Positions 14,596-41,653 of a stretch of DNA of 49,810 nt are shown in pieces. This DNA is from Candidatus Zixiibacteriota bacterium (GTDB lineage: Bacteria > Chloroflexota > Anaerolineae > Promineifilales > Promineifilaceae). The stretch lies in the NCBI GenBank assembly GCA_035686605.1, contig DASRZI010000085.1, positions 1 through 49,810 on the forward strand, given 5' to 3'. The notes under the pieces were generated by a model. It searched no databases. It saw only the letters and a program-made list of their open reading frames with translations, and had not been told where the DNA came from. Position numbers and translations under genes: made by a program. Positions within the stretch are counted from its first letter, which is position 1; every line of letters begins with the position of its first letter.

Positions 14596-15540
14596 TCAAA
14601 TTGTCACGATCCCACCTTCTGCAAGACCTATGAGCAGGGTAGCGTTGCGATCAAATCCCTGTGGAGCTGCAAGACAGACCATATTCTCAGCATGCGCCGC
14701 ACCTGCCTTCAATTCACTCCAAGATTGGCCGTTGTCACTTGACAGTAGTAGTTTGTCTTGGATCAACGCCAAAATTTCTCCATTATCTGGGTACTCCTGT
14801 GAGAGAAGGAGCGCATTTACCGTATCAGGGATATCCTCTTCACCGATACGAATCCAGTGACGGCCGCTGTCCTTTGAGCGATATAAGCCCTGGGATTCTG
14901 TACCCGCAAACAGTGTTCCGTCGGTCCGATAATTGGGCGACAAGGCTAGGCTGAGAACCGGGGCCAGTTCAATGGGGAAGTCCACTTCGCGCCAGGCTCG
15001 TCCCCCATTTGTGCTGCGGAATATTCCCGAGTCAACTCCTGCGAATAATGTTTCATCTTCAGAATAATCCTTGGAAATGGTCAAGCAAATAATATTTAGA
15101 TCTAGGAGGCCGAAGTTCCAGGTCGTCCAATTTCCACCACGGTTGGAACTACTAAAGATACCGTCCTCGACTGTGCCTGCTAGCAGTACGCCATCTCGAT
15201 CGTAATCAGGGGAGATAACAAGAGCTGAAACCAGAGGGGGTGGAGAAGGAAAATGAATCACGTCCCACGTCTCTCCCCCATCAAAGGAACGTAATATTCC
15301 ACCTGCCACCCCGGAAAAAACAGTTCTATCCGAAGCGAAATTTGGAGAAACAGCAACCGACATCGTAAGTAAAGGTGTCGTAAGGTTCAATGACTCATAC
15401 GCCATGTTCCAGGTTTTGCCACCATCTACAGACCGGTAAAGACCCGATCGTCGTGCAGCAAAACAGATCCCATCTTGAGCGAAGTTGGGTGAGGCGACTA
15501 GCGCATAGGTGATGTCTGAATTCGGAATGGCTGTGTTCAT
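14596..15540 (-). CDS. BNR/Asp-box repeat beta-propeller protein (Ycf48-like)
   Basis: Six S.DGG.TW-like Asp boxes (RSVDGGKTW, RSFDGGETW, SNRGGNW, RSTNGGRAW, RSKDSGRHW, SSDNGQSW), each preceded by an SP(N/D)(F/Y)..D motif. No obvious signal peptide. Confidence 0.8.
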   Translation of the reverse strand: MNTAIPNSDITYALVASPNFAQDGICFAARRSGLYRSVDGGKTWNMAYESLNLTTPLLTMSVAVSPNFASDRTVFSGVAGGILRSFDGGETWDVIHFPSPPPLVSALVISPDYDRDGVLLAGTVEDGIFSSSNRGGNWTTWNFGLLDLNIICLTISKDYSEDETLFAGVDSGIFRSTNGGRAWREVDFPIELAPVLSLALSPNYRTDGTLFAGTESQGLYRSKDSGRHWIRIGEEDIPDTVNALLLSQEYPDNGEILALIQDKLLLSSDNGQSWSELKAGAAHAENMVCLAAPQGFDRNATLLIGLAEGGIVTI

Positions 15541-15603
15541 TAATACTCCATGGTGTGAGGAAACACTAATAGTTGCTGGATTCTACAGCCGCTAAGGGAT
15601 TGA

Positions 15604-15635
15604 GCAACTCGCAGATCAGCGAGTCTGCGAGTTGC
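15604..15635 (-). terminator. Perfect 12-bp stem hairpin just downstream of the FucI-like gene
   Basis: gcaactcgcaga-tcagcgag-tctgcgagttgc. There is no U-tract on either strand, so it could be a terminator or an RNA-processing/stability element. Confidence 0.4.
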
Positions 15636-15661
15636 ATGGAGCTAAAGTAGGGGCAATTAAA

Positions 15662-17089
15662 CTACCGCTTGTGCTGGTAAAGATCCCAACCCAGGTAAGA
15701 TGTGATCGCTTCTTGAAGTACATCCGCACAATGATCTCGGGTCAGTGCTACATGGTGTTCAAAGCCGTTCTTACATAGAAAATTTAACAGACCTTGAAGA
15801 TCTTCAACCTGGCATACAGCCGCGCCACCATCAATTCCCACCGGATCGTCAGTAAAGTGACCCTCGCCAAGATAAGCTTTGATTGAACCTTCTGAATCAA
15901 ATGTCGACATACGGAAATATGTCATTGGTCCGGCAGCGACCTGGCCCTTTATCGCCCCAAAGCAACGGTCAGGGCCTAAGCTAGCCCCTAGGACGTCCAG
16001 GTTGGAGATTTCAACCTCTCTTCCCATAAAGCTTGCCGGGTAATTACTACAGTGGGTATTGATACACTTATTGCGATCATCCGCATAGTTGTTGTTCCAA
16101 TCCTGAAAACCTGGTGGATTCCCGGAAGCCAGCAATAAGGCATACATAGAGATTGCTCCGGCAATATCAACCTCACAGGCACTGGGCATGAATCGTTCAC
16201 CCATCATGCTCATGGATAAACATGTGGCGCAACCATAATTGTTCTGCACCGAATCCCAACATTGGATAGCACTGGCATCACACTCATTTTCTGTCATCCA
16301 GCGATCAATTACCACTGACAATTTAGACTGCTTCAAGACGTTTGCAGTCGGGATATAGTTGGGAATTGTGCCATAGTCATGGATCTCGGCAAGCTTGGTT
16401 TGAACTGCTTTGTCATCGTCTCCCAACGCCGTTGCACTGGCGAGAATTACCGACAGGTCGACAGGAATAACAGTAATTCCTGTCGCCTGCAGTATCTTTT
16501 CACTAAAGCGAACTGTCTGGAAAGCTGCAGGTCGTGCACCAATTGCCCCGATCCGGGCATTCCGGATACCCTTTACTACCCGGCAAACTCGCGAAAAGAA
16601 CTCTAGATCTTTGGCAAAATAGTCACTTTCGATGGGATATGAGTGAAGTGATGTGTTAGTAAAAGGGATACTATATTGGTGGAGGTTGTTGCAGACTGAC
16701 AATTTTCCACAGAATGAATCTCGTCTATGAGGGATGTCTAGCTTATCCAGATCATCATCGCAAGACTGGATCAACACAGGGACATCCAACTTGGCCATGT
16801 CAAGGGTTTGGACAACCCCTAGCTCATCGCCAAAATTTGGCAGGATCACCACGATACCATCTATGATATCGGAATTCTCTTTGAAGAGATTAGCGCAGAG
16901 CCTGGCATCTGCCCGAGATTCGATTGCCCCGTTTGGTGTCGCGTCAGCAGGTGGGATGACGTAGTCATAACCCAGTTCATCGAGTTTGGCTAACACCTGT
17001 ATTCGACCTTCTGCTGCCAATTGGGGATTAAAAAATCCACGAGTTGCAACTATCAGGCCAAATGTTGTTTTCTTTTCCATGATTTTCAT
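15662..17089 (-). CDS. L-fucose isomerase-family sugar isomerase (about 475 aa)
   Basis: Length and N-terminus (KTTFGLIVATRGFFNPQLAAEG...) resemble COG2407 FucI-like proteins. AAGGAG lies 6 nt upstream of the ATG. Confidence 0.75.
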   Translation of the reverse strand: MKIMEKKTTFGLIVATRGFFNPQLAAEGRIQVLAKLDELGYDYVIPPADATPNGAIESRADARLCANLFKENSDIIDGIVVILPNFGDELGVVQTLDMAKLDVPVLIQSCDDDLDKLDIPHRRDSFCGKLSVCNNLHQYSIPFTNTSLHSYPIESDYFAKDLEFFSRVCRVVKGIRNARIGAIGARPAAFQTVRFSEKILQATGITVIPVDLSVILASATALGDDDKAVQTKLAEIHDYGTIPNYIPTANVLKQSKLSVVIDRWMTENECDASAIQCWDSVQNNYGCATCLSMSMMGERFMPSACEVDIAGAISMYALLLASGNPPGFQDWNNNYADDRNKCINTHCSNYPASFMGREVEISNLDVLGASLGPDRCFGAIKGQVAAGPMTYFRMSTFDSEGSIKAYLGEGHFTDDPVGIDGGAAVCQVEDLQGLLNFLCKNGFEHHVALTRDHCADVLQEAITSYLGWDLYQHKR

Positions 17090-19897: not shown

Positions 19898-21001
19898 TTA
19901 AATCTCAATCCCCAATAACTGGAGTCCGATCTCCTTTATTCGATCCTCAGTGCCTACGTACAACCAGAGGAGAAGTTGGTCAGTGCTGGTGGATCGGCCT
20001 GTCTCGCCTCCGATCGTCTGCGCGTTGCACTCCATCTCGCCAAAGCCACCCAAATTACCGTCGTCATTGTAAACGTGGATTGAGTGGCCACGCGTTCCCG
20101 GAGCATCTGCAGGTTGCTCGGCGTACGTTACGGATGGATTGTTGAAAAAATTTCGTACGACCAGGTAGGCTAGATCATCGACCAATTGATTGTAATAGCC
20201 CATACGACCAAATACGTGTGCGGCCGAGTAGCCAACTTTGTACTGCCGGTCACCGGTTATCCTTAGGCGAATATGGCCAGGCAGGAGTGTTTGCAGTTTT
20301 TCATCGATGGGCTCGTAGTAGTCCGAATACGAAACATGGGGCGAAGAAGGAATCAATAAAAGACCGCCTGGATTTAACTGAATCAGATTCCATGCCGCAG
20401 CCATAAGATCATCTCGCTTGCTTTCAGAGATGGACAGAATCTGCTCGTAACCGGCAAAAAGAACCTCTTCCGTGAGATTCTCGTAGTTGCCCAGGTATCG
20501 CAGGGGGTCTGAGGCCGGATGGATTAACCGTTCCAAGTGTAATTCTTTATTACCTGCCCCTAGATTAAATGCCCCCAATACCATATCTTGTTCTAAACGC
20601 CATTGCCCAGGCTGCGTCTTTTCAAGCCGGTAGCGGCCGGGATCTACCTGGTTCGGCAAGTTATAGGTATTCCAATAGTCTGTGCGATCGTGGACATTAT
20701 ATTGAATCTCAGGGGCAATCCATATCCGGTCACCACCCAGGTTCCAATCACCTGAGTCAAGGAAATCCTGAAAGGATTCCGGTTGTGCAAAGGCGTCGTT
20801 GGTCCAGAATAGGCTCTCACCACTAGGAACAATATCAAAGGGTAAATATGGTCCAAAGATGCGCCCTCCATACTGAGATATCACTATCGATACACCGTTT
20901 TGCAACTCTAGCTTAGCATAGGCAAATCCTTTTTCCTCCAGGCAAGCGGTGATCTGGTAACGTGTGATTTTGTTGTTCATACCGGACCCATTTCCTCTCA
21001 A
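19898..21001 (-). CDS. Hypothetical protein, possibly with a galactose-mutarotase-like fold
   Basis: Long ORF in an operon context. NLGGDRIWIAPE and GGRIFGPY are reminiscent of mutarotase-like DUFs, which is weak evidence. Start is either TTG at 21001 or ATG at 20980. Confidence 0.8.
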   Translation of the reverse strand: MRGNGSGMNNKITRYQITACLEEKGFAYAKLELQNGVSIVISQYGGRIFGPYLPFDIVPSGESLFWTNDAFAQPESFQDFLDSGDWNLGGDRIWIAPEIQYNVHDRTDYWNTYNLPNQVDPGRYRLEKTQPGQWRLEQDMVLGAFNLGAGNKELHLERLIHPASDPLRYLGNYENLTEEVLFAGYEQILSISESKRDDLMAAAWNLIQLNPGGLLLIPSSPHVSYSDYYEPIDEKLQTLLPGHIRLRITGDRQYKVGYSAAHVFGRMGYYNQLVDDLAYLVVRNFFNNPSVTYAEQPADAPGTRGHSIHVYNDDGNLGGFGEMECNAQTIGGETGRSTSTDQLLLWLYVGTEDRIKEIGLQLLGIEI

Positions 21002-21011: not shown

Positions 21012-22463
21012 TTAAGCCAAGCCCTTTTTCTTGTAGAAATGCCGGGCTTCATTAAGAATTCTGTCTAGCTCTTGATCCTGTTCTTCGGGTAGATCATGCT
21101 GATAATTGGCCAGCATCTGATCGACCATTTCCTTGGCATAGTCCAAGGCATTCTTTTTCCCGGCTGCCTCCCATTCTGGGTAGGTTAACTGGTCTGAAGC
21201 AACCGGCACATATTGTTCCTTCTGCCACCATTCCCTGGTATGAGCCTCGCCGAGGAAGAAGCCCGGTATAGGTCCTATCTGCTGGATGAGATCGAGGGCT
21301 AGCGTATCATCGCTCACCTCAACGCCCTCGAGAAACCGGCCAATCATACCCGCTACGTCATTATCCAGGATTGACAGTGCAGGGTGATAGCTCAGCTCGC
21401 CAGTCAGTCCTCCGACATAGTTGATGATGCTTGCGCCTGATATGGCTGTGAGCACGGTCGCGATAGATTTTTCATATCCGAGCTGGTAGTCGATCGATTT
21501 CGAATTGCCTGGTCCGCTGCTGCCAAACATAGTGGGGATGTTGTACTTGCCTCGCCACATCTGATTGTACATGACATTGAATAACGAGATCCCGATGCGA
21601 CCAAATCCAGGAGCCCCGGTTCGCATGTTCTGGGGAAAGACGAAGGCATTGGACAAGATTGGCGTTCGAGGCCGGACGAGTTGGACCAGGACAATACCCG
21701 ACATCACCTCGGCGTTGCTACTGACCATCCCGGCGGCTAGAGTGGCCGGTCCTGTTCCACCCAATACGGCCCCACACCCTACTTCCACAGGGTATCCGGC
21801 CTCGGCCACGTCCCAGGCACAGTTGATTGCATCACCATACCAGGTTAGTGGTGGCGCTGACTCCATGGCAGCAAAGACATCGACACCTAAAGCCTGGGCC
21901 ATCTGGATACCCCAGATGTGACTATCCTCCGCTTGTCCAATCCGAACTGGCTTTCGAAGATATTTCATCTGGCTCCAGCAACTGGTGGGCAAAAGCATTG
22001 AAGGCGCAACCCCTTCTAGCTCGCAATAAGGGGTATATGAAGGTAATAAATGAACATTCTCCAGATCGGCCAGGATCTTGATCGCATCGTGGTTGTCCTG
22101 GATGGTTGGCGTTCTAGGTTCCCAAGTGTCGATATCGATACCCCGCATGCCTGGGAAAGCTGCCCAGTGCAGTGTTCTACCTCCTATGCTCAAATCATAC
22201 TTAGGCGTTCTTCCTTTAAGATGAAAAGTGCTTGGGCAGAGGCGCAGACACTCTTCCACCAGGCCCGGAGGGATCCGCACTCTTCTTGTTTCATGATCTA
22301 CATTGCATCCATTCTTCTCAAATAATTTAAGAGCCCTTTTGCTTTCGAACCGAACCCCGGTGTGCTCTAAAACATCGAGGCTACCACGATGGATCGCCTC
22401 CACTTGCTCTTCAGTCATTATCGTTAGTGGCTTAAATCCTTGGGTATAACCCTTTGCTGGCAT
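21012..22463 (-). CDS. MttB-superfamily (trimethylamine methyltransferase-like, non-pyrrolysine) methyltransferase, paralog 1
   Basis: N-terminal hallmark LTIMTEEQVEAIHRGSLDVLEHTGVRFESKRALKLFEKNGC. Full-length ORF with no in-frame TAG. AAGGAG SD. Confidence 0.9.
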   Translation of the reverse strand: MPAKGYTQGFKPLTIMTEEQVEAIHRGSLDVLEHTGVRFESKRALKLFEKNGCNVDHETRRVRIPPGLVEECLRLCPSTFHLKGRTPKYDLSIGGRTLHWAAFPGMRGIDIDTWEPRTPTIQDNHDAIKILADLENVHLLPSYTPYCELEGVAPSMLLPTSCWSQMKYLRKPVRIGQAEDSHIWGIQMAQALGVDVFAAMESAPPLTWYGDAINCAWDVAEAGYPVEVGCGAVLGGTGPATLAAGMVSSNAEVMSGIVLVQLVRPRTPILSNAFVFPQNMRTGAPGFGRIGISLFNVMYNQMWRGKYNIPTMFGSSGPGNSKSIDYQLGYEKSIATVLTAISGASIINYVGGLTGELSYHPALSILDNDVAGMIGRFLEGVEVSDDTLALDLIQQIGPIPGFFLGEAHTREWWQKEQYVPVASDQLTYPEWEAAGKKNALDYAKEMVDQMLANYQHDLPEEQDQELDRILNEARHFYKKKGLA

Positions 22464-22496: not shown

Positions 22497-23141
22497 TCAA
22501 ACTGGCAAATTTAACATTTTCTTTGCCAACTCCACCGCTCCCGGTGCTGTTGATCCATAGCCGTCGGCGCCAATCATGTCAGCAAATTCCTGCGTAATAG
22601 CGCCACCACCGACCATAATCTTTACTCTGTCTCTAAGCCCGGCTTCCTTTAAGGCATCGATCACCTTGCCCATCTGAGGGGCGGTAGTGGTCAGGAGAGC
22701 TGACAATGCCAGAATGTCGGCCGTTTCTTCCCGTACTGCCTCGACGAAGCGGGAAGCCGGCGTATCAGCGCCCACATCCACAACGCGGAATCCTTGAGCT
22801 ACCAACAGGACACCGACCATCGACTTGCCGATGGTATGAATATCGCCCGCCACAGTTCCGAGGACTATGGTACCAAGGCTCTTTGATTGCTGGCCTCTCT
22901 TGCGAATCTCTTCCTCCAGGATCGGCATGGCTGCCTGGCTTGCGCCGGCCGCGCCCACTAGGTCAGGTAGCCAGAGTGTTCCCGTGGAATAACCGTTCCC
23001 TACATAAGTCATAGCCTCCGAAATTGCATCCAGACCTTCAAGGGGATCTAGACCCTCGTCCACAATCGTTTGCGCACTGGCCGCGGCCTTGTTCTGGTTG
23101 TACTCAATCACTGCTGATTTTAGATCATCAAACACACTCAT
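22497..23141 (-). CDS. Corrinoid (cobalamin-binding) protein, MtbC/MttC/MtgC-like
   Basis: B12-binding DxHxxG motif (GDIHTIGKSMV), SALLTTT, MVGGGAI. An N-terminal helical B12-binding_2-like cap. GGAGGA SD. Confidence 0.9.
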   Translation of the reverse strand: MSVFDDLKSAVIEYNQNKAAASAQTIVDEGLDPLEGLDAISEAMTYVGNGYSTGTLWLPDLVGAAGASQAAMPILEEEIRKRGQQSKSLGTIVLGTVAGDIHTIGKSMVGVLLVAQGFRVVDVGADTPASRFVEAVREETADILALSALLTTTAPQMGKVIDALKEAGLRDRVKIMVGGGAITQEFADMIGADGYGSTAPGAVELAKKMLNLPV

Positions 23142-24645: not shown

Positions 24646-24797
24646 AATCAACGCTCCTTCTTCTTAAAATATTAATGTCTGTAAGTCGGGTATAGATAGA
24701 GCCTATTCATCAAGTTTTTCCAACAGGCGCCACTTATTAAAACACGGTTACTCCAACTTTTGACTCATTTTTTTATCGACCACTTCTACCGATCACA

Positions 24798-25349
24798 TCA
24801 GACCTTCTCATCTCTGATTGGGTAAAGAATTTTTTCAGGCTCCAATCGTCCCTTGGGTCGTTCGATCAACTCGAGAGTAATGCCAATCTTGTCTTCGGTG
24901 TCCAGGTACGCATAGTGACCATCACCATCGAGCCCAAACCCTGCCCCATCTTGGGTCATCATCAAACCTGCGGCTTCTGCATCGGCGATTGCCTTTTCCA
25001 TATTATCGACCAGCACGCCAAAATGATGTACGCCGTAGCCATGCTCGTTGACAAAATCTGCGTAGACAGTGTCACCTTCTACCATCTCAATAAGTTCGAT
25101 GCGCATCGGGCCTAGATAGGACAACGCAATCCGCATTTTGTACTCTGTGGGTTGTCCTTGGTAGGTCATGCTTTTCAACAGGGGCTTTCCGTATGTGTAG
25201 AAATGCCATTCCTCAATTCCGAACACGCTCCAGTAGTTCTCGACGGCTTTTTCCAGATCTTCAACTATGATTGCCACCTGGGCTATGCCGTTCTTTAGGA
25301 AAGGCAACGTTTGTTGAATATTCTTCTCAACCATTGAGATATGCCTCAT
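24798..25349 (-). CDS. VOC-family (glyoxalase/dioxygenase/epimerase-like) protein
   Basis: [24 protein letters not shown]... and [21 protein letters not shown] are typical of paired beta-alpha-beta-beta-beta VOC modules. An alternative ATG at 25334 overlaps the upstream stop. Confidence 0.8.
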
Positions 25350-32234: not shown

Positions 32235-33887
32235 CTAGAGTTGTTTCCTTTTAGGAGTCTTGGGAAGTGGGGCTTTTTCGACCTGAGCTTGATGCACCAA
32301 TGCATCGATTGTTAGAGCCATGGCTGCTGTACTGACCGCCCCGAACATGGCCCCTTTCAACACGGTAGCGGCGTCATAAATTTGGGCTTGCGCCATGTCA
32401 ACGACTTGTTGTTTTTTAACATCGAACCCGTGTCCTGCGCCGGCGAGTCGGACTTCGGCCATTATCTCACTGGCGTCAAACCCGGCATTGTCGACAATAG
32501 TTCGAAATGGGGCTTCCATAGCTTCTATCAGGATCTGATAGGCAGCGTGCTGTTCAGAATCGGTGCTATTATCCCGCTTCCGCAGGAGTGCTGGCCTTGA
32601 GTCAAGGAATGCCACGCCGCCCCCCGCGAGCACGCCATCCATCATAGCTCCTCGCAGTGTCACGGCCGTTCGTTTTGCCAGCTCAACGCGTGACTCAATC
32701 TCTCTCTCGGTTATTCCCCCCACATGAAGAGTTGCGGAGCCTCCCAATAATTTGCCAATGCGTTTCTGAATTTTCGTCCGATTGGTATTCGTTTCAGCAC
32801 TGGTATAGACCTGGCGCAATGTAGCAACATGTCTACGCAAATCCCGAGGATTGCCTTTGCCGCCCGAAATCCCAAAGTTGTCATAGTTAGCCCATATGCG
32901 GCGAGCGCGACCAAAGTCCTCGATTTTAATCTTATCCAACGTGTCGCCGGCCGCAGAGATGAAAGGCCGACCACCGGTTAAGATGGCCAGATCTTCAAGG
33001 GCTGCCATTTGTTCTTCTCTGACAAGACCAGGTGTTTTTACCGCGATGGCCTGGAATTTCTCTGGCTTACGATTGGACAGCAAAAATCCGATGGCATCTC
33101 CTGATAGTTGTTTGGTCACAATCAGAAGCCCCTGGATCTCTGCTCTGAGGGCTAATTCGAGGGCTGGATATATTTGACGCGCGTCGTTGATCTCAATATC
33201 GCTGATCAGAATAGCGGCATCTTCAAATTCTACCCGAGGCTTACTGTGATCGGCATACATCTCCCGGACAAGGAGACCACGCTCCCAGTACATGCCTTCC
33301 ACATATTCACGTTCAACATTTCTATTCTGTCCGGGCCGGATCTCCAGGCGGCCGTATTCGCCAATGATCTCAAACACCTCACCCATGTAGCCGGCAAGCG
33401 TGGGATCAAAGCAAAGTGTTTCGGCAGCCTGGGCGAGCTGTTTTTTGCCCGCAATCCGCCACGTCATACTGTTTAACTGCTGGAGAATTAGTCTTGCACC
33501 TTCAAGGAGCTGGACCTGCAGTCGCATGGCATTGCCACCAGCAGTAAGGAAACGGACGCCTTCATTGAAGACTTTTTGAAAGATGACAGCCGCTGTCGCA
33601 GTACCATCTCCAATCTGTTCTTGTAGCCGCCAGAGCAGGTCGCGAACCAACATGGCTCCCATGTCAGCATCTTTATCCTGCAATTGAATAATATATCGAG
33701 CAATGGTCCCGCCATTGTCAATAAATTCAGGGGCTTCGCTATAGTAATCGGTATTGTCAATAGCCACGCCTCTTGGTTGTGGCCCCAGTGTAGGGCGAAC
33801 CGCATTAACCACCTGGTTCATGCCAGCTTGTATGCTTTGGCGGGTTCGGGGTTGGAAGACAACACGCTGGGTTTTGGATTTTGGCAT
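32235..33887 (-). CDS. Divergent Cpn60/GroEL-family chaperonin-like protein (no GroES partner, no GGM tail)
   Basis: Collinear with GroEL: TLGPQPRGV, GDGTATAAV (GroEL DGTTT), VEGMYWERG (VEGMQFDRG), KTPGLVREEQMAALEDLAILTGG, LGGSATLHVGG, LAGGGVAF. ATG at 33887 (MPKSK) lies 4 nt after the upstream stop. Confidence 0.88.
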   Translation of the reverse strand: MPKSKTQRVVFQPRTRQSIQAGMNQVVNAVRPTLGPQPRGVAIDNTDYYSEAPEFIDNGGTIARYIIQLQDKDADMGAMLVRDLLWRLQEQIGDGTATAAVIFQKVFNEGVRFLTAGGNAMRLQVQLLEGARLILQQLNSMTWRIAGKKQLAQAAETLCFDPTLAGYMGEVFEIIGEYGRLEIRPGQNRNVEREYVEGMYWERGLLVREMYADHSKPRVEFEDAAILISDIEINDARQIYPALELALRAEIQGLLIVTKQLSGDAIGFLLSNRKPEKFQAIAVKTPGLVREEQMAALEDLAILTGGRPFISAAGDTLDKIKIEDFGRARRIWANYDNFGISGGKGNPRDLRRHVATLRQVYTSAETNTNRTKIQKRIGKLLGGSATLHVGGITEREIESRVELAKRTAVTLRGAMMDGVLAGGGVAFLDSRPALLRKRDNSTDSEQHAAYQILIEAMEAPFRTIVDNAGFDASEIMAEVRLAGAGHGFDVKKQQVVDMAQAQIYDAATVLKGAMFGAVSTAAMALTIDALVHQAQVEKAPLPKTPKRKQL

Positions 33888-33891
33888 AAAA

Positions 33892-35013
33892 TTATCCCTT
33901 GACCGCCCCCGACATTGCTCCTTCAACGAATAGCCGCCTGAACACCAGATACACCAAGACCAGGGGAATAACCGAGGCTAAGACCGCCGAATAAATAACC
34001 TGGTAATTGGTTGAAAATTGGCCTGCAGTACTTTGAATAAACGGGAGTAGCGTCGTATTGCCGGGATCCAGATATACATATGCCTCCAGAAACTGGTTGT
34101 ATAGCAGGGGCAACATAATGACGATCAGGCTAACGATGGGTACCTTAAGGAGCGGAATGAGAATGTATTGCATGTACTGCCAGCTTGTGGCTCCATCGAT
34201 CATAGCTGAATCTTCGATCTCTTTTGGTATAGCGCCTATTGCCGCGGTAAAGATCATAACTGACAACGCGGTGCCCTTGATGTTAATCATTATTAAAGAA
34301 GAAAGTTGCATCGCAGTACGTACGGTACCATCCTCCTGATATGCTGGGAATAGATTGTAGAACCACTGGAACATCAGGTATTGAGGCAAAAGGATTAGCA
34401 TGATCGGAATGACCATTTGGAGCAAATAAATATTGTATACGGCCATCTGGTACTTGCGTTGAAGACCTTTTAGACCATAGCCTGTCATTATTGAAAGCAG
34501 TATCAACAAGGTTAGACTGATGATGGTAACAATTAGGGTCTTAACAAGAGCACCCCAGAAAGTGGTGCTTTGCAGTGTTCCTGTCAATATGGTGTTCCAA
34601 CCGTTGTTGGTGTAGAAGCCGTCAAAAAACTTGGTGATCTCTTCCTCAGGGATGTTGTGCTCCTCGGCAACCTCGCGTAGTGTTGTTCGGGCCATGAGAA
34701 ATTCGGTTGGGGGAATACCTAAAGCTTCTCTCAGATCTGCTAAATCAAGATCATAAAAGACAGCCAGGTTGCCAACCTCTGCATCGAGATTGACATCCTC
34801 TGTCTCGGGGATCCAGAGATGCAGGTCGGTAGATTCTTTGGTAGGCACAAAACTACGAATGAAAAGCGCATAGAATGGAAATAGCGTGACAAGGCTATAA
34901 ATAGCCATGATAGTGATGGCCAGGATTTTGACCATCCGCTTCCGCCGACTCAGAGAGAAGATCGGCGGCTTTTGAGGTCTGGCTGTTGCTGAAGTCGATG
35001 TCATATTCTTCAT
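33892..35013 (-). CDS. Carbohydrate ABC transporter permease (MalG-like) with an enlarged extracytoplasmic loop
   Basis: Multiple TM segments and the EAA-type motif EDSAMIDGATSWQYMQYILIPLL. Confidence 0.9.
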   Translation of the reverse strand: MKNMTSTSATARPQKPPIFSLSRRKRMVKILAITIMAIYSLVTLFPFYALFIRSFVPTKESTDLHLWIPETEDVNLDAEVGNLAVFYDLDLADLREALGIPPTEFLMARTTLREVAEEHNIPEEEITKFFDGFYTNNGWNTILTGTLQSTTFWGALVKTLIVTIISLTLLILLSIMTGYGLKGLQRKYQMAVYNIYLLQMVIPIMLILLPQYLMFQWFYNLFPAYQEDGTVRTAMQLSSLIMINIKGTALSVMIFTAAIGAIPKEIEDSAMIDGATSWQYMQYILIPLLKVPIVSLIVIMLPLLYNQFLEAYVYLDPGNTTLLPFIQSTAGQFSTNYQVIYSAVLASVIPLVLVYLVFRRLFVEGAMSGAVKG

Positions 35014-35023: not shown

Positions 35024-35974
35024 CTACACCTGTACGCGCCTTTGTAATCGCTGTAAGGCAATGCCTAAAATAACGAGGGGTAGAAAAGTCTCGACGGCAA
35101 GCGTCATTCCCATGGATAATCGCTCGACCTGGAAGCCATAGGTAAAGAACAGGATACTTAGCAATTTGGCTTCTGGATTTACGTAAAGAGCGCCCATAGC
35201 CACCAATTCATCAAAAACGGCAAAGGCGCCAATGAGGGCCATCGTCGTGGCTAGGATGAACGAAGGCCACATCTGAGGAAAGTAGACTCGCCATAACCTT
35301 TGCCAATAGGAGGCCCCGTCGACTATTGCCGCTTCGATCGTCTCTTTGGGGATGGCAAGCAGGCCTGCCAGAAAGATGGCCATGTTGAAGCCGGCATACC
35401 GCCAGCCAACCATGGCAGGCAGGATGAAAGCCGTCCCCCTTGGAGAATAGATATCGATTCCCTTCTCAATCAATCCTAACTCCATTAAGAGTAAGTTGAC
35501 AGTGCCGCTTTCACGAGAAAAGAGCATCACTGCCAGGTAACCTACGGCTAATCCCGAAACCATTAATGGTAAATAAACCACGGTAAAAAAGCCACCGTTG
35601 AAACCTACCTCGTACATCAACAGCGCCAAAGAAAGTCCGAATATGAATACAGTCGTATAATTTAATAAAACAAAAACAATCGTGCGGCGCAAAGCAGGAA
35701 AATAGTCGGCTTGAACGCTAGGATCATCAAAGATCGCTGTAAAATTCTTTAGACCAACCGGGTTGATTTGCGGATCGTTGAACTGGGACATGTCGGTGAA
35801 CAGGTAAGGGATAGCGACAAGGAACGGGATAATTGTTAGCAAGGTGAAAAGGATAAGTTGGGGCGAGATGAAGGCCATGTCACGCATCATCTCCCGGCGC
35901 TCCATTTTCGACATTTTTTTCTTTTTCTTACCTGATTTGCCGGTCGATGTTCCTGACGTGGCTTCAACTTGCAT
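35024..35974 (-). CDS. Carbohydrate ABC transporter permease (MalF-like)
   Basis: TM-rich, with the EAA motif ETIEAAIVDGASYWQRLWRVYFP. Confidence 0.9.
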   Translation of the reverse strand: MQVEATSGTSTGKSGKKKKKMSKMERREMMRDMAFISPQLILFTLLTIIPFLVAIPYLFTDMSQFNDPQINPVGLKNFTAIFDDPSVQADYFPALRRTIVFVLLNYTTVFIFGLSLALLMYEVGFNGGFFTVVYLPLMVSGLAVGYLAVMLFSRESGTVNLLLMELGLIEKGIDIYSPRGTAFILPAMVGWRYAGFNMAIFLAGLLAIPKETIEAAIVDGASYWQRLWRVYFPQMWPSFILATTMALIGAFAVFDELVAMGALYVNPEAKLLSILFFTYGFQVERLSMGMTLAVETFLPLVILGIALQRLQRRVQV

Positions 35975-36052: not shown

Positions 36053-37531
36053 TTAAAGTGGCAAACCTTCGTAGCTTGCATCCCAGTTAGCCTGGGCCAT
36101 ATCCAGGGCTTCCTGGATGGTGATTTTATCTTGAAGCACATCGGCGAATACGGCATTATTACCATTAGCAGCCCAATCCCAGACGCCTTTAGCGCCCTTC
36201 TTGAGATATGGACCAGCCTTCACAACGCCAGTGATGCGCTCTTCCCAAACCGTATCTTCCCAAAGGCCACCGGGTTCTTCGATTTCCTTTAGGACATACT
36301 TGAATTGCGGACCTTTGAGATCGAGCGGTTTGTCTAGCTTATAAAGAACCTTGCGGCCTTCTGCCTGGGCGCGCATTTCCACGACCTCGGGGCTGTAGAA
36401 CCAGTTCCAGGCAGTCATGGTCTGTGGCCAATGCGCTGTATCCATATTACCCGCCCTAATAAAGAAGTCCATGTCAACGTTGGGGGAGGCTGCACCTTGA
36501 GTCCAGGTACTGTTACCTTCAGCAGGCGGTGTAAGCGGGATGCCTCGTTGTTCGAATGTGGATCCGGCAGCCAAAGCCTTATCCCACACCCATGGACCAT
36601 GGAGCATCATCACCGACTTGCCAGCGATGTAAGATGCTTCCATGTCGCCTTCCCACTGCCGGGTCCAGAAGCTCTCGGGAATCCACCCTTTGTCGTTGGC
36701 TTCTTTGTAGAACTCATAGGCATAGCGGTAAGGTGAGTCTTCTGCATTGAACTTGGCCAAACCCATAAAAGCGTCTACCTGCCGGTCACGATTACCATCA
36801 GCGAATGCCAGCGGAATTTCGTCCATGAGATTCATGCCAAAGACCCAATTGTGCCAGGCCTGGTTCCAGAAGTAATCTACATCTGGCTCACCGGCAGCCC
36901 ACTTGGTTCCCTCATCTATCCAGGTTTTCATGTCTTCCCAGGTCTTGACGTCGTTAACAGGATCCAATCCCGCCTTCTGCATCAAGTCGTTGTTGTACTG
37001 CCAGGTAAAGACATAACCCTGAAAGATAGACAGGGTGCGGGGACCTGGTAGGCCATACATATCAGGCCAGGCATTCTTAACATCGACTGTGAAGCGATCC
37101 CACCACGGGAATTCAAACGAACTAAGGTCTTCAAACAATTGATAGTTATCTGTACTGGCTAGGATTTGTAACTCTTGGGTATTCTCAAAGGAAGGCAACC
37201 AACCCCCAGCCACCTTGGCTTCGTGGGCTGCTGCCGTATCCTCGTTGATCGAGAACAAATTGACCTTGATGTCCGGATTTTGGGCTTCGAACACATTCCA
37301 AATTTCGCGATATGGGGCTTCGTACTCGGAAAGCGGCGCCATGATGTCCAGTGTCACTGCTTCCGCACTTGCAGGTACTGCGGTAGGTGCTGGCACATCG
37401 GTTGCGGTGGTTCCACTGCTTGCCGGCTCGGTAGGATCTCCTGATGCCCCGCAGGCCACCAGAGTCATACCCGCTGCCGTAGCCGCACTCACACGCAAGA
37501 AATCGCGCCGAGTCATTTTGTTATTTGTCAT
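36053..37531 (-). CDS. ABC transporter extracellular solute-binding lipoprotein with a Tat signal
   Basis: Twin-arginine motif MTRRDFLRVSAATAAGMTLVAC followed by the lipobox LVAC. Family-1-like sugar-binding protein length. AAGGAGGAG SD. Confidence 0.9.
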   Translation of the reverse strand: MTNNKMTRRDFLRVSAATAAGMTLVACGASGDPTEPASSGTTATDVPAPTAVPASAEAVTLDIMAPLSEYEAPYREIWNVFEAQNPDIKVNLFSINEDTAAAHEAKVAGGWLPSFENTQELQILASTDNYQLFEDLSSFEFPWWDRFTVDVKNAWPDMYGLPGPRTLSIFQGYVFTWQYNNDLMQKAGLDPVNDVKTWEDMKTWIDEGTKWAAGEPDVDYFWNQAWHNWVFGMNLMDEIPLAFADGNRDRQVDAFMGLAKFNAEDSPYRYAYEFYKEANDKGWIPESFWTRQWEGDMEASYIAGKSVMMLHGPWVWDKALAAGSTFEQRGIPLTPPAEGNSTWTQGAASPNVDMDFFIRAGNMDTAHWPQTMTAWNWFYSPEVVEMRAQAEGRKVLYKLDKPLDLKGPQFKYVLKEIEEPGGLWEDTVWEERITGVVKAGPYLKKGAKGVWDWAANGNNAVFADVLQDKITIQEALDMAQANWDASYEGLPL

Positions 37532-37727: not shown

Positions 37728-37729
37728 GA

Positions 37730-39280
37730 TTAGGCTTCATCTCGCAGCTGCGACAATGTTACAAAATCCTCCTTCACATGTTCATAAATCTGTTTATAAA
37801 GAGAAAAGTACGCCATGTACTGCTCATGGTTTTCAGGATCGGGTTCCATGCGGTCGATATACTCAACCCACTCCTTGGCCACAGAATAATCCTTCAGCAC
37901 GCCGACCACTACACCAGCTAAGATGGCATCACCGAAGGGGGCTCCGGTTCTCCGCTTAACCAGAACCGTAGGCGCGTCGAACACGTCAGTGATGATTTGA
38001 CGCCAAAGTTTACTTACCGCACCGCCCTCGTTTAATACAATTGGGTAGTTAATCCTTATCCCGGCTTGCTTGATCAAACGGTAGGAATCATAAAGAGCAA
38101 AAGCGACACCTTCCATCATAGACCGGACTATGTGTCCCTTGGTGTGGGAAAGTGACAGGCCAAAGATTACTGCCCTGGCCCTCGTGTCCCAGATCGGGGT
38201 ACGCTCGCCCATTAAGAACGGCAGAGTGATCAGCCCGTCGCTCCCGGCCGGGACTTTGGCAGCCTGGAGATTTAGTAAATCGTACGAACTTACTCCCAGC
38301 GCGCGTTCCATCTCTAGCTCGAGATGTGAAAAGTTATCGCGAATGTAGCGCAGCGATTGCCCACCGGTTATGGTTGATGGAATCGTCATAAAATTCTTTT
38401 TAGAATCAATGCTAAAGGCTAGGTTGATCATCAACAGGCCTGCAGGAGAGAACATGAAGTCCGGATCGGTAAAGATCACCCCAAAGTTGCCCACAGTGCC
38501 GAGGTTGCTCATGATGTCACCAGGCTCTATGACGCCAGCGGCAATGCAACTGGCATTAAAGTCCACCTGAGTAACCACCGGAATACCCGGTACCAGGCCG
38601 GTTTCTTCTGCAGCCTCGGCTGTGACTTCGCCGGCAATCTCCTCGCAATCGACCAGGTCGGGGAAGATAGCCGGATCGATACCTATCTCCTCCAAGATTG
38701 TGGAATCAAAAGTTCGATCCAGGATGCGGTAGACACCATAAAAAGGAGCGCCAGGGTAGTTTACGACCGTCTGCTCTGTAAGTTTTAGAGTGACAAATCC
38801 GTCAATCGTTAGCGCCTTGTGAATCTTCTTGAATGAATCGGGCCTGTTGTTCCTTTCCCAAAGCAGGTTGACAATCGCTGGATGATCCTCAAGTCGATTC
38901 GCCGTGAACTGCATTAATCTCTCTTCCCCAACCACCACCTTGAGCCATTCAACTTCTGCCTTTGCCCGCCGGTCCATCAAATTATAGGCTCGATGGATGG
39001 GCTGGTTGTCTTTATCGATCATAACCATAGAAGGCAATGCAGATGAAACCCCCATGCCTCGGATCTCGACCGGATCTACGCGCGATTGGGCGAGGCATTG
39101 TTTAATCAATCGGCAAGCGGCTTCCCAATAGCCCATGGCATCATGTTCCGACCAGCCTGGCTTGTCGTGGAATATGGGATATTCCTCAAAGGCATAGCCC
39201 AGGACCTCCCCTTCAGAGTTGATGATGCAGGCCTTGGCCCCACCTGTTCCATAATCAAGACCTAATAAGAAATCAGCCAT
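37730..39280 (-). CDS. FGGY-family carbohydrate kinase (second copy)
   Basis: N-terminal [17 protein letters not shown], a C-terminal FGGY-like region ([15 protein letters not shown]), 516 aa. Confidence 0.9.
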
Positions 39281-39413: not shown

Positions 39414-40028
39414 TTAGTTCGTGCCAGTCGCAATTTTCTTGCCGACTGCGCCACCAGGATGCGTTTGTCCAAAAGCCTCCCTGGTATAGCCACGTAGTTC
39501 AAGCAGGAGAACACAGAGAACATCACTGGCCGCCCCATTGACCAGGGAGCTGCCGGTGGCCACCATTCCGTAAGGGTCAATTTCTCCAACAGCTTGTACC
39601 TTGAACACCGAATCGCACATATTGGCCAGAGTCGATTCAGGATTTTCAGTCTGGGCGATGAGCTTGGCTCCCCGGGCACGGGCGATTTCGGCAAACTGAT
39701 TTATCTCTGTGCTCTCCCCTCCTTTGGATATGAGATACACGACGTCTTCGGCTGTTACGGCTCCAGAGGTACCATGAAGTCCGTCTGATGCGTTGATATA
39801 GAGGGCTGGCGTGCCGCTACACGACAGCAGATGGGCCATGCGCTGGGCGATGGCCCTCGAGGTGCCCGCCCCGGTCACCAAAACATGCCCCTGGCACTTG
39901 AGGAGAAGAGAGATAACATCCGCCAAGTTCTCGTTTAGCTGTCCTGCCAGGGCGCCAACAGCTTCGGCTTCGGTCCGAACAACCTCCCGAGCCCTGACGA
40001 CAATTTCCGCCCTTGATGTTTCCATCAC
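39414..40028 (-). CDS. SIS-domain sugar-phosphate isomerase-like protein (PHI/KpsF-like, single domain)
   Basis: GHVLVTGAGTSRAIAQRMAHLLSCSGTPA is a typical SIS phosphosugar-binding motif. About 200 aa. Confidence 0.85.
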   Translation of the reverse strand: MMETSRAEIVVRAREVVRTEAEAVGALAGQLNENLADVISLLLKCQGHVLVTGAGTSRAIAQRMAHLLSCSGTPALYINASDGLHGTSGAVTAEDVVYLISKGGESTEINQFAEIARARGAKLIAQTENPESTLANMCDSVFKVQAVGEIDPYGMVATGSSLVNGAASDVLCVLLLELRGYTREAFGQTHPGGAVGKKIATGTN

Positions 40029-40037
40029 GCTCGTGTC

Positions 40038-40994
40038 CTACTTGTCTTCAGCCAGGAGCGCCTCGGCCGTCGACAAATCGGTGACTAGCACATTCAATAT
40101 TTCGCCGAGCAATGCTGCCCGGACAATCTCGTGCTTATTAATGCCGCCGGCAATACCTATCACCAGCGAAATATTGCGAATTTGATCAAGCGCCAACCCA
40201 ATGATTCGCTCGTTGATTTCCAGATCAATGCTGTTTCCAGTTTTATCCAAATACCGGAGCGCGATATCGCCAACAGCGCCCAGAGATTGAAGGTGATCAA
40301 GATCTTCCTTGCTAAGAATTAAGCCCGATCGCACCACCATCGAATGCGGGTTGGGAACACCAAGACCTACCACTGCCACATCTGCCTGGGCAGCAAGCTG
40401 GAGGACAGCTGCAATCTGAGGATCGGCCCTAAGGAAATCTGCCATCTCGCGGTTTGGGACAACGCCTGGCGCTGGCAACATACGCACCTTGGCCCCTAGC
40501 TTGGAGCCAAGATGTTGGATTAGCTCCGAGGAATGCTCCGGCGTATTAGAGGGACCCAGACCGCCTAGCATTTGAACCACGGTAACACCGGGCCAGGATT
40601 TGTTGGATAGGGCATCCGATAGAGCCAGGATCGAGGTTCCCCAAGCTGTGGCAATCACCTCGTCTCCTGAAATGCAGCGACTCAAGTATTCGGCGGCCGC
40701 AGGCCCCAGTTCTCGTACTACCGTGGGATGGCTCTCGGGATCGCTGACAGGTACGACAACCGCCTCGATAAGACCATATTTGTGTTCCAGTTGTCGCTCA
40801 ATGTCGGCCATACCGTCGAGTGGGGGAACGAGGGTTATATTGATAACGCCCAGGTCTCGTCCTTGTTGCAGGATTCGGGAAACTTTTGGCCTGGAGAGGC
40901 CTGCACGATCGGCGATTTGCTGCTGAGTCATACCGTCAACATAGTACTGTGTGGCAATTCGGTATAGCAACCGGTGTTGCTCGCTGCTTAACAT
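40038..40994 (-). CDS. SorC/DeoR-type sugar-binding transcriptional regulator
   Basis: N-terminal HTH MTQQQIADRAGLSRPKVSRILQQGRDLGVINITL plus a SorC sugar-binding domain. ATG at 40994 (MLSSEQ); the tracked ORF opens at 41093. Confidence 0.88.
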   Translation of the reverse strand: MLSSEQHRLLYRIATQYYVDGMTQQQIADRAGLSRPKVSRILQQGRDLGVINITLVPPLDGMADIERQLEHKYGLIEAVVVPVSDPESHPTVVRELGPAAAEYLSRCISGDEVIATAWGTSILALSDALSNKSWPGVTVVQMLGGLGPSNTPEHSSELIQHLGSKLGAKVRMLPAPGVVPNREMADFLRADPQIAAVLQLAAQADVAVVGLGVPNPHSMVVRSGLILSKEDLDHLQSLGAVGDIALRYLDKTGNSIDLEINERIIGLALDQIRNISLVIGIAGGINKHEIVRAALLGEILNVLVTDLSTAEALLAEDK

Positions 40995-41653
40995 ATCATT
41001 ACCCACCTGGCTGAACGTATGTTCTTGACCGAACAATTGCCCATTAGTAACTTTTATCACAAAGAAATTTGCACAACAAGTGTCGAATGTCATGTCAAAT
41101 TTATGACAACCGTCAGATCGGGCAACTACACCGGGTAGTTGAGATTGTTCCGAGCCCAGGCATACAGGGGGTCGAAGACACTTGCAGGTCCATTCGCCGG
41201 CGAAACACCGCTCATGTCACACGGTTACCAGAATTGACGCCATCTACTCGGTCAGCTTACTCTTCGACCTAATCAGGTGTATTCTTCTATTGTTGCATGC
41301 TCCCTGGTCAGAATTCACCGTTAGCTATTGACTCGAGTTTGACCGGTCTCGCGGTGCCGCTACCCTGGCAGATCTGACCGGGATGAGAAGGGATGTCCGA
41401 CCAGAAAGGCTCAAACTTTTTCGGCTAGAGAGCGCACCCACGCGAATTCAGCAATCTCACTAATTGGATTGTAGCGTCACAGCAGTATAAGATATGTTCC
41501 GAATTCAGGGACTATCGAATGGAGATCAAACAAAGAACTAGCCGGATGTTACCAGGACCAGGGGTTACGCAACGAAACGCCAGCGAAGAATCCGCCAGGC
41601 CATCGTGCGTTTTTCATTTTAGCGCGAATTAAGTTTTATTCAGGAGAAACTAA

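Follow-up and report, generated by a model that had tools for sequence, protein, structure and literature searches.

A conserved Chloroflexota carbohydrate-utilisation locus with an acquired B12-dependent and probably methyl-removing module

What are cobalamin-dependent methyltransferase genes doing inside a sugar operon? The question is raised by contig DASRZI010000085.1 of assembly GCA_035686605.1, which is filed under Candidatus Zixiibacteriota and placed by GTDB in the Chloroflexota (Promineifilaceae). Positions 1 to 49,810 of its forward strand are the stretch we analysed, called the window below. Minus-strand open reading frames run unbroken from 14596 to 41093, and plus-strand genes border both ends. 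An earlier note on this DNA had proposed that the run encodes a catabolic pathway, not yet characterised, for some modified sugar or polyol, and our analysis supports that proposal, in that the core of the run is conserved and matches no known pathway. The block is a conserved Chloroflexota carbohydrate-utilisation locus with an acquired B12-dependent methyl-removing module. Judging from its genes, the locus would, on balance, import and catabolise a methyl-bearing carbohydrate with corrinoid-dependent demethylation as one step, and the cluster points to a route, so far undescribed, by which methylated sugars or sugar-like amines are consumed.

Most of the block proved to be an established unit. 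By use of the divergent GroEL-like chaperonin paralog of the block (GroELp) as anchor, we found 80 orthologous loci, mostly in Chloroflexota with a few in Actinomycetota and Spirochaetota. Among these a canonical cluster recurs (L136, L140, L148, L168, L173, L147, L156 and others; comparison loci are cited by number) in the order SorC-DRL-ADH1-DUF6786 (or VOC)-FucI-SBP-Perm1-Perm2-GroELp-BNR-ADH2-TIM-SIS-FGGY-FBA(-FGGY), that is, a SorC-family regulator, a DXR-like oxidoreductase (DRL), two Zn-dependent dehydrogenases (ADH1 and ADH2), a FucI-like isomerase, a solute-binding protein (SBP) with two permeases, GroELp and a BNR beta-propeller, a TIM-barrel enzyme, a SIS isomerase, FGGY kinase and a class II aldolase (FBA). 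Between 12 and 15 of the window's 21 families are present at 40-87% identity in L140, L173, L136, L142, L168, L156, L160 and others, all of which lack the MttB-superfamily methyltransferases, the corrinoid protein (CoP) and a large hydrolase (P890) that the window carries. In at least 12 other Chloroflexota genomes 15 or 16 of the 21 families are found together. The window is this conserved core, rearranged, with its BNR gene displaced and with lineage-specific inserts. The view that the run is one cluster holds for the sugar core, which recurs as a whole; the MttB trio and P890 have been inserted into it.

The first insert consists of two non-pyrrolysine MttB-superfamily methyltransferases, MttB1 (23191..24651; Pfam MTTB, PF06253, 267 bits) and MttB2 (21012..22463; Pfam MTTB, 256 bits; 69% identical to MttB1), with the gene of their cognate corrinoid (B12-binding) protein, CoP, between them (22497..23141; Pfam B12-binding plus B12-binding_2). 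These genes, like all others of the block, are on the minus strand. In the window the trio lies between the VOC and DUF6786 genes and P890 lies between the DUF6786 and FucI-like genes, with junctions of 10 and -11 nt, whereas DRL-ADH1-DUF6786-FucI is contiguous in the canonical clusters. As this sub-operon is contiguous elsewhere and the junctions are so tight, the inserts lie within the transcription unit. The stretch DRL-ADH1-VOC-MttB1-CoP-MttB2-DUF6786 was assembled identically in independent metagenomes, and hence this neighbourhood is neither a chimera nor an assembly artefact.

The nearest collinear relative is a sister cluster, L132, from a Chloroflexia metagenome-assembled genome (MAG). 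It shares 16 of the 21 families, arranged in the window's order at 43-87% identity (64-87% excluding the corrinoid protein), and its collinearity with the window extends from SorC to DUF6786, over which the identity is 64-87%. A gap of 44 nt with no MttB gene separates its VOC and DUF6786 genes, and it has neither MttB nor P890. At 2495-4512, between its SIS and FGGY2 genes where the window has a 133-nt gap, it encodes an MtaA/CmuA-like URO-D-family methyltransferase and an MtgC-like corrinoid protein. In a further locus, L001 (Anaerolineae), P890 stands between two distant MttB-like genes plus a URO-D-family gene and the set SorC-DRL-ADH1-DUF6786-FucI-SBP. That two close clusters gained different corrinoid modules at different positions, together with L001, is the strongest argument for methyl transfer as a functional step.

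The same association was found from the side of the methyltransferase. A protein search with MttB1 gave 867 relatives at E 1e-30 or better, the neighbours of which were looked up on their contigs; a single-sequence MttB1 scan gave one GTDB locus, and an alignment-based genome scan then gave 78 loci, which were clustered. All 13 loci with an MttB at least 57% identical to MttB1 hold sugar-type genes, and this group forms one clade in a neighbour-joining tree. As a control, sugar-type genes were present in one of the 45 P890-anchored loci (L001 only). The earlier note had allowed that its genes might not be kept together in other genomes; the sugar block is conserved in many Chloroflexota and the MttB clade sits among sugar genes in 13 of 13 loci.

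Four architectures were seen in the clade. Type A (the window, L046 and L047) combines a CUT1 importer, GroELp, BNR, CoP, P890 and two or three MttB genes with ADH, TIM, SIS and FGGY. Type B (L048, L050, L055) has a Peripla_BP_4 ATP-binding cassette (ABC) importer, a split transketolase, PfkB, RpiB and MttB-CoP-MttB. Type C (L049, L056, L059) is one operon, SorC-SIS-ADH-DRL-FGGY-FucI-CoP-MttB-M24, followed by Aldolase_II and PfkB, with an E1/E2 complex next in L049 and L056. Type D (L051, L057, L058) reads IsoDH-MttB-LacI-creatinase-ADH-SDR-E2-AcoX-E1. In type C the SorC, SIS and FGGY genes, which had been thought to be split off in the window as a unit of their own, stand in a single operon with DRL, ADH, FucI, CoP and MttB, and so are not functionally separate.

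Outside the clade many relatives have MttB genes beside Peripla_BP_4 (sugar-type) ABC transporters. In L061, which falls in the sister clade, CoP-MttB is accompanied by FGGY-SIS-aminotransferase-ADH and an ABC importer of the Peripla_BP_4 type, and in L053/L064 (54% identity, outside the clade) MttB-CoP-MttB is accompanied by FGGY, URO-D, RACo and a Peripla_BP_4 importer. Among distant members (45-52% identity), from Dehalococcoidia, Aerophobetes and Spirochaetota, the classical full system is seen: a corrinoid protein, an activase of the RACo type and a methyltransferase that is either pterin-binding or of the URO-D family, together with acyl-CoA enzymes and transporters of the TRAP or Peripla_BP_4 type. 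As a separate observation, MttB members at 46-51% identity from Dehalococcoidia and one Chloroflexia MAG (L088, L095, L101, L110-L112, L115, L118) lie in operons with altronate/galactarate-dehydratase-like proteins, ADP-forming acyl-CoA synthetase, acyl-CoA dehydrogenase, RACo-type activase and pterin-binding methyltransferase, apparently a complete methyltransferase system for an acidic substrate. The neighbours give hints of two kinds as to what is demethylated. An amine is hinted at by the class III aminotransferase that L061 encodes next to CoP-MttB, by the double-SIS protein of L001 and by hydrolases of the M24/creatinase type, which occur in types B to D (L049, L050, L051, L055 and others). 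Hints of an O-methyl group are the MtaA/CmuA-like enzyme of L132 and the RhaM, RhaA and Aldolase_II genes adjoining some clusters.

MttB1 and MttB2 have the features of intact non-pyrrolysine enzymes. Their genes are uninterrupted open reading frames of 486 and 483 aa without an in-frame amber codon, and the MTTB domain is full-length (profile positions 22-489 of 500). Against TIGR02369, the model of MttB proper, they scored 300.8 and 275.1 bits, short of the cut-off of 525. CoP resembles the NCBIfam pyl_corrinoid and MtgC-like models at scores under their cut-offs. The closest solved relative of MttB1 is D. hafniense MtgB (phmmer E ~1e-52), which binds glycine betaine through pi-cation contacts of Y97 and F356 and through R312 and H348 at the carboxylate (PMC13080624). 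Upon alignment to 9yce/2qne the pi-cation residues Y97 and F356 corresponded to F106 and E359 of MttB1 and the carboxylate-binding residues R312 and H348 to L315 and N351. Hence MttB1 failed the test for MtgB substrate residues, only the first aromatic position of the four being kept. E359 is invariant over 36 clade members. As the carboxylate-binding pair is gone and an acidic residue occupies the MtgB ammonium site, the predicted pocket fits a cationic substrate without a carboxylate.

Given this main result, the gene run can be described in full. Counting genes of at least 180 aa, the open reading frame listing gives 21 consecutive genes, not the 23 counted before, since the larger gaps (78, 121, 133, 146, 146 and 198 nt) are too short for any further gene. 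The junctions are mostly very short or overlapping, as had been said: 15 of 20 are at most 56 nt or overlap. GC skew is negative throughout the block, matching minus-strand coding. Pfam or NCBIfam confirmed every family on the earlier parts list, to which two genes are to be added, those of the BNR/Sortilin-type propeller and of DUF6786. The note had also reported one clear hairpin terminator. This hairpin, just 3' of the FGGY2 stop codon (37697-37727, minus strand; folding free energy -19.5 kcal/mol, z -5.9 against shuffles), is real, but its U-tail is weak (AUUAUUUCG) and a consensus terminator scan omits it; from its sequence it is a possible attenuating terminator. It is also one of three. 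A GC-rich 11-bp hairpin in the gap between the binding-protein and permease genes (35999-36026, minus strand; -27, z -4.2) is stronger, and the third lies in the gap between the FucI-like and BNR genes (within 15541-15661; -39, z -4.9). Promoter and terminator scans of the window gave counts no higher than expected from shuffled sequence, and Rfam and tRNA scans of the window gave no match, a cobalamin riboswitch included.

The run begins with the SorC-family regulator (40038..41093; helix-turn-helix and sugar-binding domains, Pfam Sugar-bind 226 bits), which accompanies the cluster in L132, L140, L173, L142, L168 and L147 and is the first gene of the compact MttB operon of L049, L056 and L059. 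The importer comprises a solute-binding lipoprotein with a twin-arginine translocation (Tat) signal (36053..37531; Pfam TAT_signal, with an RRDFLR motif and an LVAC lipobox in the sequence) and two permeases with Pfam BPD_transp_1 domains, permease 1 (35024..35974) and permease 2 (33892..35013). This combination of an extracytoplasmic binding protein and two BPD_transp_1 permeases is that of a CUT1-type importer; the locus encodes no importer ATPase. Solved relatives of the binding protein are weak matches only, among them UgpB and sugar-binding proteins. In the GroEL-paralog set 23 loci encode it at 56-71% identity, permease 1 is 74-87% identical in 31 loci, and permease 2 lies directly upstream of the GroEL paralog in 33 of the 80.

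The sugar enzymes fall into recognisable families. Two FGGY kinases are encoded, FGGY1 (30718..32229; best NCBIfam match XylB, 329.7 bits against a cut-off of 380), which also adjoins MttB genes in L046, L047, L049, L056 and L059, and FGGY2 (37730..39280; Pfam FGGY_N and FGGY_C; XylB 293 bits against 380), which is 70-83% identical in core clusters. The single-domain SIS sugar-phosphate isomerase (39414..40028; Pfam SIS) is nearest to the SIS domain of KdsD/GutQ and is kept in the core cluster, although at 125.9 bits against the NCBIfam KdsD cut-off of 505 it is no equivalog. ADH2 (29639..30685; Pfam ADH_N and ADH_zinc_N; 74-86% identity in core clusters) best matches Tdh and IolM at ~170 bits, far under the cut-offs, and ADH1 (25327..26400; assigned by Pfam; 68-87% identity) is under all cut-offs. 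The xylose-isomerase-like TIM-barrel epimerase/isomerase (28683..29582; Pfam AP_endonuc_2; best NCBIfam match IolO, 111.7 bits against 300) is 77-86% identical in 17 loci. The class II ketose-bisphosphate aldolase family protein (27783..28670; Pfam F_bP_aldolase 257 bits; best NCBIfam match ketose 1,6-bisphosphate aldolase, 234.7 against 406) is present in 15 GroEL-paralog loci. The DRL oxidoreductase (26439..27734; COG4091; Pfam DRL_cat 212.6 bits) is always paired with ADH1 in relatives. The VOC/glyoxalase-fold protein (24798..25349; Pfam Glyoxalase_4) holds the same position in L132, L142 and L147. The FucI-like aldose-ketose isomerase (15662..17089; Pfam Fucose_iso_C 86.6 bits), for which the best NCBIfam match is sulfoquinovose isomerase (SftI, 97 bits against 700), is present in 12 GroEL-paralog loci and in L049, L056, L059 and L001.

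Directly before FucI in core clusters lies the gene of a DUF6786 protein (19898..21001; Pfam DUF6786), predicted to be a galactose-mutarotase-like beta-sandwich. Its AlphaFold2 model has a mean predicted local distance difference score (pLDDT) of 86 and a predicted template-modelling (pTM) score of 0.88. Foldseek matched the model best to putative aldose 1-epimerases, 3nre (E 1.8e-7) followed by 3mwx and 3k25; the match to 3nre has probability 1.00 and TM scores of 0.49/0.60 and is fold-level evidence only. As the best structural matches are putative aldose 1-epimerases, which suits the site beside the FucI-like isomerase, the modelled protein is a probable mutarotase-like sugar-handling protein for anomers or epimers.

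None of these enzymes reached an NCBIfam equivalog cut-off, whether for the fucose, rhamnose, xylulose, tagatose and inositol routes or for any further known one, and the view that no textbook pathway can be recognised is upheld. The L-fucose pathway test failed: only the FucI C-terminal domain matched, the kinases scored 154 and 91 bits against the fuculokinase cut-off of 471, and no Aldolase_II (FucA-type) protein was found in the window. The Thermotoga-type inositol pathway test failed likewise (IolM 186 and 166 for ADH1 and ADH2 against 450; IolO 112 against 300).

The GroEL paralog had been listed as an oddity of this locus. It is, rather, one half of a widespread gene pair. GroELp (32235..33926; Pfam Cpn60_TCP1; true start probably near residue 14) scored 333.7 bits against the GroEL equivalog TIGR02348, well under the cut-off of 582.1, and barely passed one subfamily model (361.7 against 352). 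Alignment to solved GroEL shows that it keeps the GDGT and GGG nucleotide-site motifs. Its conserved neighbour is not groES. A BNR propeller of ~315 aa is encoded directly 3' of GroELp (~550 aa) in 71 of the 80 loci with no groES nearby, and in ~33 of the 80 GroELp lies directly downstream of two CUT1 permeases. In the window the BNR gene (14596..15540; Pfam Sortilin-Vps10 plus BNR) is displaced from GroELp to the far end of the cluster; its product weakly resembles GH74 enzymes and Ycf48. GroELp and BNR are annotated in L047 as a single product of 867 aa, either a true fusion or a frameshift of a long-read assembly. The pair also has a second conserved context, in which one or more sulfatases lie upstream and are followed by a histidine kinase with a seven-transmembrane region and by creatininase-family, PAC2-family and CE15-type glucuronyl esterase proteins (L178-L181, L184-L186, L188, L190, L191, L194, L195, L198, L202, L207, L210). 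This context points to a role of the pair in polysaccharide degradation more generally. We found no literature on a GroEL paralog with a BNR propeller. The pair is possibly the more novel observation and a separate one, conserved and undescribed; found in dozens of genomes, it is an unexplained use of the chaperonin fold that is worth its own study.

The second insert, P890 (17236..19908; ~870 aa, true start probably at residue 21), had been called a metallohydrolase, and its C-terminal part bears this out: residues 490-812 match the CehA/McbA-type domain model NF038032 at 135.9 bits (cut-off 80). Its N-terminal ~470 residues matched no family in Pfam, NCBIfam or the PDB, and the protein as a whole had no Pfam match, even in a permissive search, and no PDB match by sequence or profile. 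The AlphaFold2 model is poor (pLDDT 52, with the catalytic domain below 50). As a neighbourhood query, for which it had been suggested, P890 was uninformative: across 45 loci in Chloroflexota, Bacteroidota, Spirochaetota, Planctomycetota, Acidobacteriota and Lentisphaerota it has no conserved neighbour, the recurring ones being spurious antisense reading frames inside the P890 gene itself. This rules it out as a pathway-defining gene. Besides the window, it lies beside MttB-family genes in L046, L047 and L001 only. The family is large, with over 2000 proteins at E 1e-20 or better, and unusually well conserved, with ~57-70% identity across phyla and hundreds of invariant positions. P890 is a widespread enzyme in its own right, without a solved relative or conserved neighbours.

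The pathway may not end where the minus-strand run ends. A divergent plus-strand operon at 41654..46010 encodes, by Pfam, E1 alpha, E1 beta, an NAD-kinase-family (AcoX-like) protein and E2, which is the gene set of acetoin-dehydrogenase-type complexes. In L049, L056, L051, L057 and L058 the E1/AcoX-like/E2 set is a neighbour of MttB or sugar genes; E1 and E2 genes lie beside GroELp-BNR in L197, L205 and L206, and E1 alone does so in L137. This operon probably belongs to the pathway. Hence the run of 14596-41093 given by the earlier note is real as a run, but the pathway probably extends beyond it into 41654-46010. The AcoX-like gene (43664-44666, plus strand) is split into two frames near 44155, by either a genuine frameshift (a pseudogene) or an assembly error. 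A second 2-oxoacid/acetoin-dehydrogenase-type unit is present on the other flank (9640-14414, plus strand), with a DeoR regulator (9640-10416), an E2 acyltransferase (10486-11859) and a fused E1 alpha-beta protein of 818 aa (11958-14414); its link to the pathway is weaker than that of the first operon. Farther out, a protein of 1571 aa that combines Chlamydia PMP repeats with DUF11 and He_PIG/Big domains (1636-6351, plus strand) is encoded in a GC-rich patch (0.59-0.62 against ~0.50 elsewhere) and may be a horizontally acquired surface protein. Genes of a Cys-rich CPCC protein (447-806), a ParA/MinD-type ATPase (7713-8618) and a CoiA-like protein (48002-49357) are unrelated.

How might these parts act together? 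In a scheme of which the step order is inferred, a rare sugar or small glycoside would enter by the CUT1 system with an ATPase supplied in trans. The core enzymes would then convert it to central intermediates by oxidation and isomerisation, phosphorylation and aldol cleavage: the DUF6786 protein may handle anomers and the FucI-like enzyme interconvert aldose and ketose, the two Zn-ADHs, DRL and the TIM barrel could provide oxidation or reduction and rearrangement, the FGGY kinases would phosphorylate, the SIS protein would isomerise a sugar phosphate and the class II aldolase would cleave the product. The thiamine diphosphate/lipoyl complex may cleave a ketol product. In the window's version of the pathway the substrate would bear at least one methyl group, which either blocks sugar catabolism or goes along with it. 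Such groups would be taken off the substrate, or off an intermediate, by the MttB enzymes and placed on the Co(I) corrinoid protein, with each paralog perhaps acting on a different methyl group or the pair acting in succession; the methyl would pass to an acceptor encoded elsewhere, as the reductive activase would be, and the demethylated skeleton would enter the core pathway. P890 may remove a further ester, amide or phosphoester decoration. In E. limosum choline is phosphorylated before its demethylation by the MttB-family enzyme MthB (PMC12155760), and the aerobic MtgBCD system of marine bacteria takes MttB-family demethylation beyond anaerobes and can share components with methionine synthesis (PMC12478193). 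A more specific form of the proposal we advance tentatively, as possible but not yet probable: that the corrinoid methyltransferases (MttB here, MtaA/CmuA in the collinear sister) strip methyl groups from an O-methyl sugar or an N-methylated aminosugar or aminopolyol and that a dedicated GroEL-like/BNR pair serves the importer. All MttB chemistry known so far would accommodate the N-methylated aminosugar or aminopolyol, and an O-methyl sugar would be new chemistry for the family.

The methyl groups need not be on the sugar. The substrate might instead be a conjugate of a sugar or polyol with a methylammonium head group (a phosphocholine- or choline-type ester or glycoside) that the CehA/McbA hydrolase splits. 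The core would then consume the sugar, and the MttB/corrinoid module would demethylate the amine set free, in the manner of MthB and phosphocholine. MttB would thereby stay within known quaternary-amine chemistry (PMC12155760, PMC13080624), and the CehA/McbA domain is that of a metal-dependent hydrolase. P890 and the MttB trio were gained together in the window, L046 and L047, with P890 and MttB-like genes together also in L001; the binding protein weakly resembles UgpB; and the absent MtgB carboxylate-binding residues and the invariant Glu fit a cationic substrate lacking a carboxylate. We nevertheless think a conjugate rather unlikely. Architectures B to E of the same MttB clade lack P890, L132 has its corrinoid module without P890, and P890 has no conserved partner in ~40 other loci. 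Moreover, architectures B and E use monosaccharide-type (Peripla_BP_4) transporters and have MttB inside compact sugar operons, which argues for a small, single-molecule substrate. Glycerophosphocholine, betaine-lipid head groups, and pinitol or other O-methyl inositols were considered as substrates and not adopted for lack of evidence. The same holds for the 2-O-methyl-fucose and 2-O-methyl-xylose of rhamnogalacturonan II, 4-O-methyl-glucuronate, methylthioribose and mycosporine-like amino acids, and for 2-C-methyl-erythritol or 1-deoxy-xylulose, which DRL, the XylB-like kinase and the acetoin-dehydrogenase-like complex had brought to mind.

Two further explanations would deprive the methyltransferases of any part in a sugar pathway, and both are poorly supported. 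Independent operons (sugar, methylamine methyltransferase and orphan genes) could share a strand by chance or recent insertion, and the lack of the MttB trio and P890 from most core clusters, the orphan state of P890 in most genomes, the gaps of 121-198 nt with three hairpins, and the lack of a methyl acceptor enzyme or activase in the window, as expected of a fragment, are what such a mosaic would look like. It is improbable in the face of inserts that interrupt a sub-operon contiguous elsewhere with a 10-nt and an overlapping junction, of an MttB clade that has sugar genes around it in 13 of 13 loci (1 of 45 in the control set) and in four architectures, of the insertion into the sister cluster L132 of a corrinoid methyltransferase of another, unrelated type, and of the independent association of L001 with a different MttB clade. 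Alternatively, the core could be a divergent form of the L-fucose/L-rhamnose, tagatose/galactitol, Thermotoga-type inositol, erythritol/threitol or apiose route, with MttB incidental. The FucI-like isomerase and FGGY kinases, an aldolase of the tagatose/fructose bisphosphate class II type, ADHs and a TIM barrel that match IolM and IolO of the Thermotoga inositol route best, and the RhaM, RhaA, Aldolase_II, split transketolase and RpiB of relatives all lean that way. However, every score is far under its equivalog cut-off (IolM 186/450, IolO 112/300, L-fuculokinase 154/471, XylB 330/380, SftI 97/700), no known route joins a DRL-type oxidoreductase, DUF6786 and the GroEL-like/BNR pair to these enzymes, and our literature search found no paper on COG4091 in sugar catabolism and none on DUF6786. 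We consider a known route very improbable.

Several points weigh against the demethylation of an imported carbohydrate that we favour. The characterised non-pyrrolysine MttB members named in PMC13080624 and PMC12155760 all act on quaternary amines and none on a sugar. The substrate proposed for the pathway is a reading of its genes, and the mapping of MttB1 onto MtgB is a sequence alignment to a distant relative (the phmmer match cited above). Neither a methyl acceptor enzyme (an MT2, pterin-binding or MtaA-like) nor a RamA/RACo-type activase is encoded in the 49.8 kb of the window, whereas more distant MttB-family loci carry both. Among the 80 GroEL-paralog loci MttB was present in none and a corrinoid protein in one; as most core clusters carry no corrinoid module, demethylation would be an accessory and not a core step. 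Finally, the comparison loci are mostly MAGs, some with frameshift errors.

Polymers of plants, algae and microbes commonly contain methylated sugars and sugar-like compounds with N-methyl groups. If our reading is true, Chloroflexota and sediment Spirochaetota and Aerophobetes would have an oxygen-independent cobalamin route that passes methyl groups to one-carbon metabolism and skeletons to glycolysis. The MttB superfamily would extend beyond small quaternary amines to a substrate class never demonstrated for it, and its many orphan members would gain a class of substrates open to testing, since ligand screens could start directly from the binding proteins encoded with them. Each component family is known, and their combination was found nowhere in a searched literature of 8.3 million papers. 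The search found nothing linking MttB enzymes to sugars or O-methyl sugars to corrinoids, and nothing on point for MttB in Chloroflexi or for MttB gene neighbourhoods; of the papers that had seemed relevant, preprints on Atribacteria of hydrate sediment and on the mlp gene cluster proved unrelated. The only dedicated sugar demethylation route it turned up is an O2-dependent cytochrome P450 for 6-O-methyl-galactose.

The core resembles the L-fucose and L-rhamnose routes in its succession of mutarotase-like protein, FucI-like isomerase, FGGY kinase and aldolase and in having a sugar-responsive regulator and an ABC importer. It differs in that its aldolase is of FBA class II and not FucA/RhaD (Aldolase_II), in having no equivalog-level component and in adding dehydrogenases, DRL, a TIM barrel and a SIS protein. 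The DRL protein, by its DRL_cat domain, is like the solved oxidoreductase 3upl/3upy (330 bits, E 2e-97 over the full length), which we take to be Brucella abortus DRL, a type II DXP reductoisomerase. Its genomic setting is a sugar catabolic operon, with a Zn-ADH as its constant partner, rather than one of isoprenoid synthesis. Carretero-Paulet et al. are said to have reported in 2013 that many DRL-family members lack DXR activity.

The O-demethylases of anaerobes (MtvABC, Odm and MtoABCD) share with the window a multi-component design in which a substrate-specific methyltransferase (MT1) works with a corrinoid protein, and in Mto several MT1 paralogs, MtoB1 and MtoB2, share one corrinoid protein (PMC8630106). 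The MtaA/CmuA-like enzyme of L132 belongs to the broad family to which these MT1s are related. The known substrates of these systems are, however, aryl methyl ethers, and the window's MttB-family enzymes are not MtvB-like and come without activase or MT2.

The nearest enzymology is that of the non-pyrrolysine MttB systems, which include MtgB/MtgC for glycine betaine, MthB/MthC/MthA/MthK for choline via phosphocholine in Eubacterium limosum, and MtcB, MtpB and MtyB. Like the MtgB and MthB systems, the window has a full-length MTTB protein without an in-frame UAG and an adjacent CoP with B12-binding and B12-binding_2 domains, and the Mth system shows that the substrate of an MttB enzyme can first be modified by a kinase (PMC12155760). 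Unlike them, it has two MttB paralogs flanking one corrinoid protein, lacks a methyl-corrinoid:tetrahydrofolate or coenzyme M methyltransferase and a RamA/RACo activase, and has its genes, which come from Chloroflexota MAGs, in a sugar operon rather than with amine transporters; the residues by which MtgB binds the carboxylate of glycine betaine are not conserved. The nearest concept is found in the porphyran loci of marine bacteria, where a cytochrome P450 oxidatively demethylates 6-O-methyl-D-galactose (PMC10033563). There, too, a dedicated demethylase within a carbohydrate locus lets a methylated sugar enter ordinary catabolism. The porphyran enzyme is an O2-dependent monooxygenase that releases formaldehyde, whereas the window has no P450 and would transfer the methyl group to Co(I).

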